Below, piece by piece: positions 253-2,491 of a stretch of 7,781 nt of DNA. This DNA is from a virus (Monodnaviria > Loebvirae > Hofneiviricota > Faserviricetes > Tubulavirales > Inoviridae). The stretch lies in IMG/VR virus record IMGVR_UViG_2529292923_000001, one strand, 5' to 3'. The notes under the pieces are model-generated. The model was not told the origin of the DNA. It did no database searches and saw only the letters and a list, made by a program, of their open reading frames with translations. Position 1 is the first letter of the stretch. Each line of letters begins with the position of its first letter. The position numbers and the translations under genes were made by a program.

Positions 253-1533
253 TTACATGCCGCGTTGCGGCATCATTTGCCAACCCTGCGAGCATGAAGC
301 ACCACTAATTATATCCGTCCGGTTATTCTCATCTGATTTGCCTGTAAAACCCGGCAAAAATGAAAAACCTGTCCGCGACTGCGTCAGCTTACTGCTGGCA
401 AGGCCACCAAGCACAAGTAATTCACCGTCCTTAACATCAACCTTTGTGCTGATTTCCCGCTTCGTCAGTGTCGGGCTGGAGTTAACGCCTGTCGTTGTCT
501 TTACAAAATCGCTCAGTTGCTGGCTGATATCCAGTGTTATCAGTCCGTCAAGCACAACCGGCGTTACTGTAAAAATCGCCCCGCTGTTCCTGTATGTCAC
601 AGACTGGACTGGCGTTCCGCTGCTGCCCTGATAGCTGACACTGTCCAGCACCGGAACTTCCTGACCCACAGTAAACTGCGACTTACTGCCGGAAAGCACC
701 GTAAGACGCGGATTACTCACGACATTAAAGCGTGAATCCTCTTTGATCAGACTGTAAAACGCATTCAGCCCTCCAACATTCAGCGTAAACGAATTACCCC
801 CATCAAGACGAGCCCCCACAGACATCCCCAGTTTATTACGGAACAAATCAGCAATAATTTGCAGTCCGGTTGCATTGCGGTCTGTCGTCTGGACTTCAAG
901 AACATAGCCGCTCACCGTTACCTGCTCTGCCGGAACGTCAATACGCGGCAGTATTTTTTCTATCTGCCGGACGGATGCTGCCGGACCGGAATAAACCAGC
1001 ACTTCGGCATCCGTTGCGATCGACATACGCGTCGATGCACTGTCTGTCGTGGTTATACCTGACACACCGCCAGACAAATAATCGACGGACTGAATATGAT
1101 TACTGAAAGCCCCGGAAGAAACCACAGAGTTAAGCATTGCCGATAAATAACTCACGCTGCGGTATTTAGGGCGATAAGTAAAAACCACATCAGGCACTTT
1201 CTGCTCAGTCTGCTTTATCACTGAAATGTAATCCACGCCATCCTTCATCGACGTGACGCTGATATTCAGGCGTTTAAGGTATGAAATAAAAAAGCTTCGC
1301 GGCTCCTGATTTTTACTCAGATAGAAACTGACAAGTCTTGTGTCTCCTGCAATATCCGGCGACAACTGATAAGGGCGATTAAAAACCCGTTGCCAGACCA
1401 TGCTGATAACCTGAGGTAAAGGCGCATTGTCCATTGACATCTCCACACGTCGTGCCTCACTTTCTGAAACGGCATAAGCCGGAGAAAAAAATGATAAAAG
1501 CACAAATGAAAAGAATACGGTGATCAGTTTCAT
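253..1533 (-). CDS. secretin, pIV-like phage export channel
   Basis: 426-aa ORF with an N-terminal signal peptide ([21 protein letters not shown]) and a C-terminal secretin-like region ([20 protein letters not shown] ... GELLVLGGL). The ATG at 1533 overlaps the stop of the upstream pI frame (ATGA), and the gene sits last in the morphogenesis operon as in Ff phages. Confidence 0.88.
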
Positions 1534-1757
1534 TTTTGCCCCCTGAAAGAAACCGGATTATTACAGGACCATGCAACAACCTTCACGCCGTCCACCTCAT
1601 TAAAACGCCCTATTACGCACCACTTTTGAGAAGGCGCAGGAGCGGTTTTATTCTCCGGTGAAGGCGAAACATTAACCGACGGCGAAGACGGCGAAGAACG
1701 TAACGGCGCTGACTGCTGTGCCTGTTCTGTTTTTTTCTGCGGATTAAAAAAAGGCAA
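1530..1757 (-). CDS. C-terminal (periplasmic, Pro/Ser-rich) part of the pI/Zot-like assembly protein, in the -1 frame relative to the N-terminal part
   Basis: The frame is open from 1826 to 1530 and encodes a hydrophobic stretch followed by [42 protein letters not shown]. The annotated TTG start at 1757 has no RBS. Its stop overlaps the pIV ATG. Size and position match the pI C-terminal domain. Confidence 0.55.
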
Positions 1758-1765
1758 AAAGAAAA

Positions 1766-2491
1766 CTAAAGAAGAGATAAACAGAAAAGCAATATAAGAA
1801 AAATAAACAAAAGAATAACCTGCGGTTTAAACAAAACCGCCCTTGCGTCAGTTCTTGTTTCCACCGCTCCCTTAACATCATGAGAGCTGTAAAGCGGGTA
1901 AATATCTTTACTGTAACGGCAGACATAATTTGAAAGATGCGTTGCCTTTGTGGTTCTGGAACCGTCGAAAACATCAACGCGATAACTTTTATGAGAAAGA
2001 CCAATCAGTTTTTTCATTCTGAAAGTCTGCTCAATACGCTCACGAAGAAAGCGAGGCAACGTTGTCAATGCCTGATTAATAAGAACAAGGTCGCAGGTTT
2101 GCCCCGTTTTTTCATCAGCATAATGGCGATGCTCGGCAGCAAAGATACGGGCATCAGATGACAAAGCTTTATCTGATGTAAAAAAACGATGACACTCATC
2201 GAGAATAATTAAATCACCTGGCTGGCAGAGTGATTTATCCTGATTTCCCTTAACCGGATAAAAATCAGAGGACATAACCCGCTCATTTTCAACATGAATG
2301 ATTTCACCTGGTGAAATATCATCACTTATCAGTTTGTTTTTATAACAATACTGAATGATTGCCTCATGATTCAGTCCGTATATATTTGAGACAATCCTTC
2401 GGCCGGATGCAACAGCCGGAATAATAACAGACTTAACCACTTCATAAGATTTGCCAGAACCCGGCACGCCAATATATGCAGTAATAGCCAT
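1766..2491 (-). CDS. Zot-like / pI-type phage assembly ATPase (N-terminal P-loop domain plus transmembrane segment); ORF ends prematurely
   Basis: Walker A motif GVPGSGKS at residues 8-15 and Walker B-like LIILDECH; C-terminal hydrophobic helix [25 protein letters not shown] lies 4-5 nt upstream of the ATG at 2491. Position between pVI and pIV is as expected. Confidence 0.88.

Follow-up and report, generated by a model that had tools for sequence, protein, structure and literature searches.

The stretch of DNA analysed here (the window; 7,781 nucleotides (nt), IMG/VR record IMGVR_UViG_2529292923_000001, Inoviridae) is one unit of a dif-integrated tandem filamentous (inovirus) prophage, and the gene in question encodes its pI/Zot assembly ATPase. 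An earlier note, made from the letters of the window alone, had described this gene as split by a -1 frame change into two open reading frames (ORFs). The window is 100% identical to contig AIEV01000030.1 of Escherichia coli DEC1A (GCA_000249055.2; locus L015, positions 383–8163), so the frame change is a genuine property of the deposited sequence. In the “DECA” collection of drafts from 2012, DEC1A has the first accession. Reverse-complemented, the window corresponds to exactly one repeat unit of the tandem prophage, and on the DEC1A contig this copy is preceded by the last 381 nt of an upstream copy. All genes of the window are located on the minus strand and follow the classic inovirus order. 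Around the frame break the following features are found (lengths in amino acids, aa):

2787–2503, minus strand: pVI-like DUF2523 gene
2491–1766, minus strand: Zot/pI assembly-ATPase ORF as deposited, 241 aa (EHU11067.1 / WP_001407948.1)
1757–1530, minus strand: 75-aa ORF, “hypothetical protein ECDEC1A_1623” (EHU11199.1)
1533–1530, minus strand: ATGA overlap of the pI stop and the pIV start, an overlap also found in relatives
1533–253, minus strand: pIV secretin ORF, 426 aa as deposited versus 419 aa in relatives

The pI/Zot gene and its frame break

The Zot/pI ORF matches the Pfam profile PF05707 with E = 2.2e-23 and 83.2 bits (cut-off 20.3), residues 5–204 corresponding to positions 4–193 of the 197 positions of the profile. 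A Walker A motif (GVPGSGKS) is located at residues 8–15 and a Walker B motif (LIILDE) at residues 94–99. When 14 sequences were aligned, G13 and S15 proved invariant and K14, D98 and E99 nearly so. The gene further occupies the position usual for the family, DUF2523–Zot–Secretin with a stop/start overlap. Judged by profile, motifs and synteny the predicted protein belongs to the Zot/pI family, and the identification of the gene as a pI/Zot assembly ATPase in the earlier note is supported by the profile match. Two features of the PF05707 family are lacking. As deposited, the gene is not a single ORF comprising ATPase, transmembrane helix and periplasmic domain but consists of 241 + 75 aa, a departure that we attribute to sequence error. 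In addition the periplasmic domain is incomplete, 33 residues of its conserved core being deleted.

Among known systems, pI of the Ff phages f1, M13 and fd is alike in its N-terminal P-loop ATPase, single transmembrane helix and periplasmic C-terminal domain, and gene I is alike in its position upstream of and overlapping pIV (order pIII–pVI–pI–pIV); the likeness to Ff pI is based on the Pfam Zot model and not on direct sequence comparison. Zot of the Vibrio cholerae phage CTXphi shares the PF05707 match, and CTXphi shares integration at dif and the arrangement in tandem arrays. Unlike CTXphi Zot, the C-terminal domain encoded in the window is of the type conserved in Enterobacteria and Pasteurellaceae, and homologues from Vibrio inoviruses among the matches listed show only ~29–30% identity, restricted to the ATPase domain. 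Membership in the Zot family implies no toxin activity here.

Direct reading and a three-frame translation both place the end of the Zot/pI ORF at the TAG at 1768–1766, straight after a hydrophobic stretch. The -1 (= +2) frame is open from 1826 to the TGA at 1532–1530, and this stop overlaps the ATG of pIV (1533–1531). Both observations agree with the earlier note, which had recognized the C-terminal domain of pI in the -1 frame. It had also stressed that both frames are open and hydrophobic over 1769–1826. This is true of the sequence; however, the tract is 60% T and 62% of shuffled versions are likewise free of stops, so the open -1 frame in this tract is no more than expected by chance. The T run beside the stop, which had been placed at plus-strand AAA 1769–1771, is actually located at 1770–1768 (plus-strand AAA 1768–1770).

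The lesion itself differs from the one proposed. When aligned with intact relatives, the window contains two extra T's located 28 nt apart:

1785–1788, minus strand: T4 run with the first extra T (T3 in every relative)
1759–1785, minus strand: stretch between the extra T's, where the ancestral helix residues SVYLFFSFL are readable only in the +1 frame
1756–1760, minus strand: T5 run with the second extra T (T4 in every relative)

As a consequence of two +1 insertions the downstream part falls in the -1 (= +2) frame, and the ancestral transmembrane helix is divided among the three frames. Its upstream part is read in frame 0, and the stretch LPFFNPQKK... of the ancestral protein is read in the -1 frame. 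The deposited 241-aa Zot is correct up to residue 235, after which its 6 final residues (FCLSLL) no longer follow the ancestral frame. The 75-aa ORF represents the C-terminal linker and periplasmic domain of pI in the -1 frame; taken alone it gave no Pfam match. Adding a single T at cttctttag, as had been suggested for repair, would restore a frame but not the ancestral sequence.

Relatives and other assemblies of the same clone

The phage type is present in 27 of 5426 complete E. coli genomes with altogether 45 copies, and in these 27 genomes the two-ORF arrangement was not found. The best match in each of them contains a 99-bp segment missing from the window and has the length difference expected for the intact allele; two annotated examples among the complete E. 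coli genomes encode a pI of 352 and 349 aa. Exact-pattern scans allowing either allele matched 7 viral and 5 metagenome contigs, all with the short T3/T4 allele of 58 nt, and no species-representative genome. When complete E. coli genomes were searched by megablast with the 81-nt T-rich tract there was no match, an outcome that the low-complexity filter probably explains. In the cluster of pI proteins at 90% identity there are 250 members. Among ~15 billion proteins the 352-aa pI occurs in hundreds of contigs, whereas each frameshifted product of the window (241-aa Zot, 75-aa ORF, 426-aa pIV and 94-aa pVI) is found on exactly one. Homologues down to 38% identity (more than 100), originating from Salmonella, Klebsiella, Serratia, Proteus, Pasteurella and uncultured inoviruses, are 341–374 aa long and cover 95–100% of the query; two shorter entries lack the N-terminal part only. 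Related phages with the same two ORFs, which the earlier note had named as evidence that would speak against an indel, were thus absent from every relative examined.

By exact look-up of the Rep protein of the window we found the same phage clone in other assemblies. The independent and much later accession GCA_050054435.1 (locus L019) has a right flank identical over 4534 nt and contains the same phage, in which both the length of the pIII repeat and the 99-bp deletion agree with the window; the two differ by only 7 one-base indels and 3 substitutions. In L019 pI is one uninterrupted ORF of 319 aa, identical to residues 1–235 of the deposited protein and to the -1-frame tail. The pI of strain DEC2B is also 319 aa long, and GCA_900448265.1 carries on a 5.1-Mb contig tandem copies (loci L017 and L018) with a 352-aa pI. 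At the position in L019 where the upstream tandem copy should be, the assembly contains a scaffold gap of 100 N (8662–8761).

We aligned the same phage eight ways, comparing contigs of the 2012 drafts with the later assemblies L019 and the two copies in GCA_900448265.1. The later assemblies showed no private differences. In the drafts the private changes were distributed as follows:

DEC1A (window): 6 private one-base indels
AIFB: 8 private one-base indels
AIEX contig 32: 6 private one-base indels
AIEX contig 35: 10 private one-base indels
DEC2B: 1 private one-base indel and one 2-nt insertion

Each draft had at most 3 substitutions. The indels are mostly length changes of homopolymers, the remainder being isolated insertions of T or A. 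Sister drafts carry changes in pI elsewhere, among them in the T7 and A7 runs that follow shortly after the site discussed here. Unique chromosomal genes in the drafts are frameshifted as well, as for an aldehyde dehydrogenase gene of AIEX (A6 to A5), and the right flank of AIEX contains a further homopolymer change (A5 to A4). In ~28 kb of flank compared among these strains we found zero substitutions, which leaves no evolutionary time for 6–10 real indels per phage copy. Assuming that indels account for 10–20% of natural mutations, the probability of 7 indels among 10 private events is P ~1e-5 to 1e-3.

When 12 relatives are compared, one-base indels private to the window are found in pIII, pVI, pI (two) and pIV, and one more just downstream of pIV. 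The one-base changes outside pI are:

306 and 294: extra A at 306 and T for G at 294, together replacing the last 10 residues of pIV
243/244: missing A just downstream of pIV
2784: extra T in codon 3 of the pVI-like DUF2523 gene, leaving only a TTG-started ORF of 94 aa (95 aa in relatives)
2965–2968, minus strand: G4 run in pIII (G5 in relatives), frameshift before the C-terminal membrane anchor
4994–4999, minus strand: T6 run in a small hydrophobic ORF (T7 in relatives), shortening it from 57 to 44 aa

The change from T7 to T6 at 4994–4999 recurs in the sister draft AIFB and was therefore not counted as private. The Rep gene and the gene for a putative single-stranded DNA (ssDNA)-binding protein are untouched. 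From their positions in the window, a rough hand estimate gave no significant clustering of the private changes.

The 99-bp in-frame deletion differs from these changes. It has its junction at 1598/1599 on the minus strand and takes out 33 residues where the periplasmic domain of pI is conserved best, giving a pI of 319 aa (L019 14175–15134; L024 5297–6256). Three assemblies from at least two projects have the deletion, namely DEC1A, DEC2B and GCA_050054435.1, whereas the segment is kept in the tandem copies of GCA_900448265.1 and in the examined copies from complete E. coli genomes. An exact search for the deletion junction in viral contigs gave no match. The deletion is real, as three assemblies have it in common. 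It had been missed by the earlier note, and it means that the repaired pI of 319 aa is still not the 352-aa family form: the length of about 320 aa predicted for a fused protein comes close to the 319 aa in L019, but such a protein is not intact. In Ff phages the periplasmic domain of pI faces the secretin. The loss of 33 residues may offer a small lead on a dispensable part of this domain; alternatively it may mark a defective variant of the prophage that circulates in this lineage of E. coli.

Origin of the frame break

Taken together, the split of pI is very probably an artefact that arose when the DEC1A draft was sequenced or assembled, the gene being in truth one ORF of 319 codons. The two extra T's and the five other one-base indels, which frameshift pIII, pVI, pIV and a small ORF, would then be consensus errors of the 2012 draft. 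We infer an error of base calling or consensus as their cause from the comparison of assembled sequences. In the real pI the ATPase domain would be followed by a single transmembrane helix, a linker rich in Pro and Ser and a periplasmic domain of reduced length, the ORF ending in the ATGA overlap with pIV, and the 99-bp in-frame deletion would be its sole real departure from the family norm of 352 aa. The preference of the earlier note for an indel over programmed frameshifting was borne out, and sequencing error had been a live option there. Biologically the frame change is nothing new.

The case resembles artificial frameshifts known from early drafts in that the indels are private, assembly-specific, mostly located in homopolymers and gone from later assemblies, and that the split “genes” are confined to a single contig. 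It differs in one respect, and this is the first of several points that weigh against an artefact: over five contigs the indels of the drafts are ~13x denser in the multi-copy phage (34 in ~38 kb) than in the flanks (2 in ~28 kb), and the flank of DEC1A itself is without a one-base indel in 6.2 kb, compared to 7 in the phage. Long homopolymers are only 2–3.5x more common in the phage than in the flanks, which explains the concentration of indels only in part; the excess presumably reflects poor consensus in a multi-copy repeat. Secondly, the tail of the upstream copy on the DEC1A contig has the consensus state at 306, 294 and 243. That the assembler kept two versions at first suggested real differences between the copies. 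Finally, T3 and T4 runs are unusually short for homopolymer miscalls, and DEC1A has no change in the T7 and A7 runs nearby.

Some of these observations would fit real indels. The window may represent the last, dif-proximal copy of the array, which would be decaying, with pIII, pVI, pI and pIV pseudogenised. By analogy to CTXphi, virions would be templated from an upstream copy into the next origin, and the last copy would be mostly unpackaged and free to decay. Apart from the indel-free flank and the upstream tail on the same contig, which lacks three of the differences, the sparing of the Rep and putative ssDNA-binding genes agrees with such a decay, as does the arrangement of the phage as a tandem array at dif, as for YpfPhi and CTXphi (PMC4266046). 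A truly decayed terminal copy was favoured at first, but was overturned by the same clone in other assemblies and is now unlikely. The private changes comprise 7 indels versus 3 substitutions, unlike natural decay, and sister drafts of the same project carry differing sets of indels while later assemblies carry none. One homopolymer change occurs in two drafts, the frameshifted products are confined to one contig, and the flank without substitutions leaves no time for decay.

More doubtful still is the idea that the indels are real and phage-specific, arising because replication or repair of phage DNA in its tandem or single-stranded state is prone to frameshifts, and producing strain-specific defective copies. 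This reading draws on the five contigs mentioned above, which come from four related E. coli strains. In that case the dif-proximal copy of DEC1A would hold, in its split pI, a true pseudogene.

A natural division of labour appears very improbable. In Ff phages the C-terminal product pXI is made separately from gene I, and by analogy the window might encode an ATPase-plus-anchor protein and a separate pXI-like C-terminal protein. The position of the break within the transmembrane helix would be in line with this. However, the downstream frame has its first canonical start, the TTG at 1757, only after the hydrophobic helix, and the product would be without a membrane anchor; the 75-aa product also lacks the 33 conserved residues, and the arrangement is conserved nowhere. 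The pXI of Ff arises from an internal in-frame start and not from a frame change, whereas the “second ORF” of the window would be an artefact.

Programmed recoding, with a -1 ribosomal frameshift or transcriptional slippage on a T tract fusing the ORFs and the 241-aa ATPase as a second product, is hardly credible: the frames do overlap over 1769–1826 and the stop of the -1 frame forms the conserved ATGA with the pIV start, but the open overlap is a chance expectation (see above), a script scan of 1860–1766 for a zero-frame heptamer of the type X XXY YYZ was negative, in agreement with the earlier note, the runs upstream of the stop are only T4–T5 where slippage needs ~8 or more, and the T7 (1752–1746) and A7 runs are located downstream of the stop. 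The two-frame arrangement occurs in no relative at any distance and the same clone has a single ORF, and this missing conservation effectively refutes recoding already.

If the indels are artefacts, the altered products have nevertheless entered the public databases like real variants: WP_001407948.1, ECDEC1A_1623, WP_001407973.1 (the 426-aa pIV) and WP_000021532.1 (the 94-aa pVI). Scans for recoding or pseudogenes in drafts of the 2012 era will keep flagging such sites, and caution is warranted.

The prophage array and its other genes

Filamentous prophages such as CTXphi, YpfPhi and CUS-1 are integrated at dif in tandem (PMC4266046). On integration an intact dif is restored at the 3’ end, the site between two copies is imperfect, and the arrays consist of at least two copies (PMC4266046). 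The element studied here has the same organization. Its junction sequences show that it has inserted at the chromosomal dif and that dif is restored at one of its ends, and it forms tandem arrays as do dif-integrating inoviruses of the CTXphi/YpfPhi/CUS-1 kind, with at least two prophage copies in L001, L017 and L018. The dif-like site is intact at the pIV-side end and imperfect at the copy–copy and left junctions (L015 8150–8175; L019 8540–8560), and on the chromosomal side the prophage adjoins hipA (hipBA). The phage contributes one half of the site:

1–16, minus strand: XerC-side half of the dif site at the phage end, which together with the chromosomal flank rebuilds AGTGCGCATAATGT followed by ATATTAT

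We take this junction to be E. coli dif from its agreement with the known dif sequence. YpfPhi of Yersinia pestis and CUS-1 of E. coli K1 are alike in dif integration, the intact 3’ dif, the imperfect inter-copy site and the arrays. Both were absent from the nucleotide matches and from the 25 listed protein matches in the deposited phage collection, no direct sequence comparison with them having been made. A nucleotide search of the deposited phage genomes with the window gave a match of 10% only, and the closest ones among the matches listed are uncultured inoviruses with ~40% identity of pI.

The remaining genes of the unit are, in order along the minus strand:

6664–5471, minus strand: Rep (Rep_trans), 398 aa
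minus strand: 111-aa protein in the position of the ssDNA-binding protein; putative
4984–5118, minus strand: small hydrophobic ORF, unannotated, between the 111-aa protein and the coat gene (L001 3380–3553)
minus strand, after the small hydrophobic ORF: major-coat-like protein
minus strand: 56-aa ORF between the major-coat-like protein and pIII
4385–2862, minus strand: pIII with a long Gly/Thr/Ser repeat

The small hydrophobic ORF (57 aa in relatives) is located where minor coat genes of the pVII/pIX type are found. The (Gly-Thr/Ser)n coding repeat of pIII (window ~3130–3330) differs in length among copies: in the window it is 108 nt shorter than in L001 and 36 nt shorter than in L017. The opposite strand of this repeat yields spurious long ORFs rich in Pro, Val and Leu.

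A related prophage in strain E100341 (L002 1016–3475) contains the same pIII–pVI–pI–pIV module combined with a different replication module. A 667-aa “replication endonuclease” replaces the 398-aa Rep_trans, and a gene of the phospholipase D family follows pIV. This layout points to modular exchange.

The right flank (L015 8164–14398) belongs to an island that adjoins the prophage and holds two integrase-like genes. Compared to strain MB64 it has deletions of 278 nt and 6 nt (415-aa and 464-aa products). As these are common to the whole DEC1A/DEC2B/UFZD/JBNHSW group, they are real clonal markers. Further along, MB64 carries a retron Ec78 defence system.

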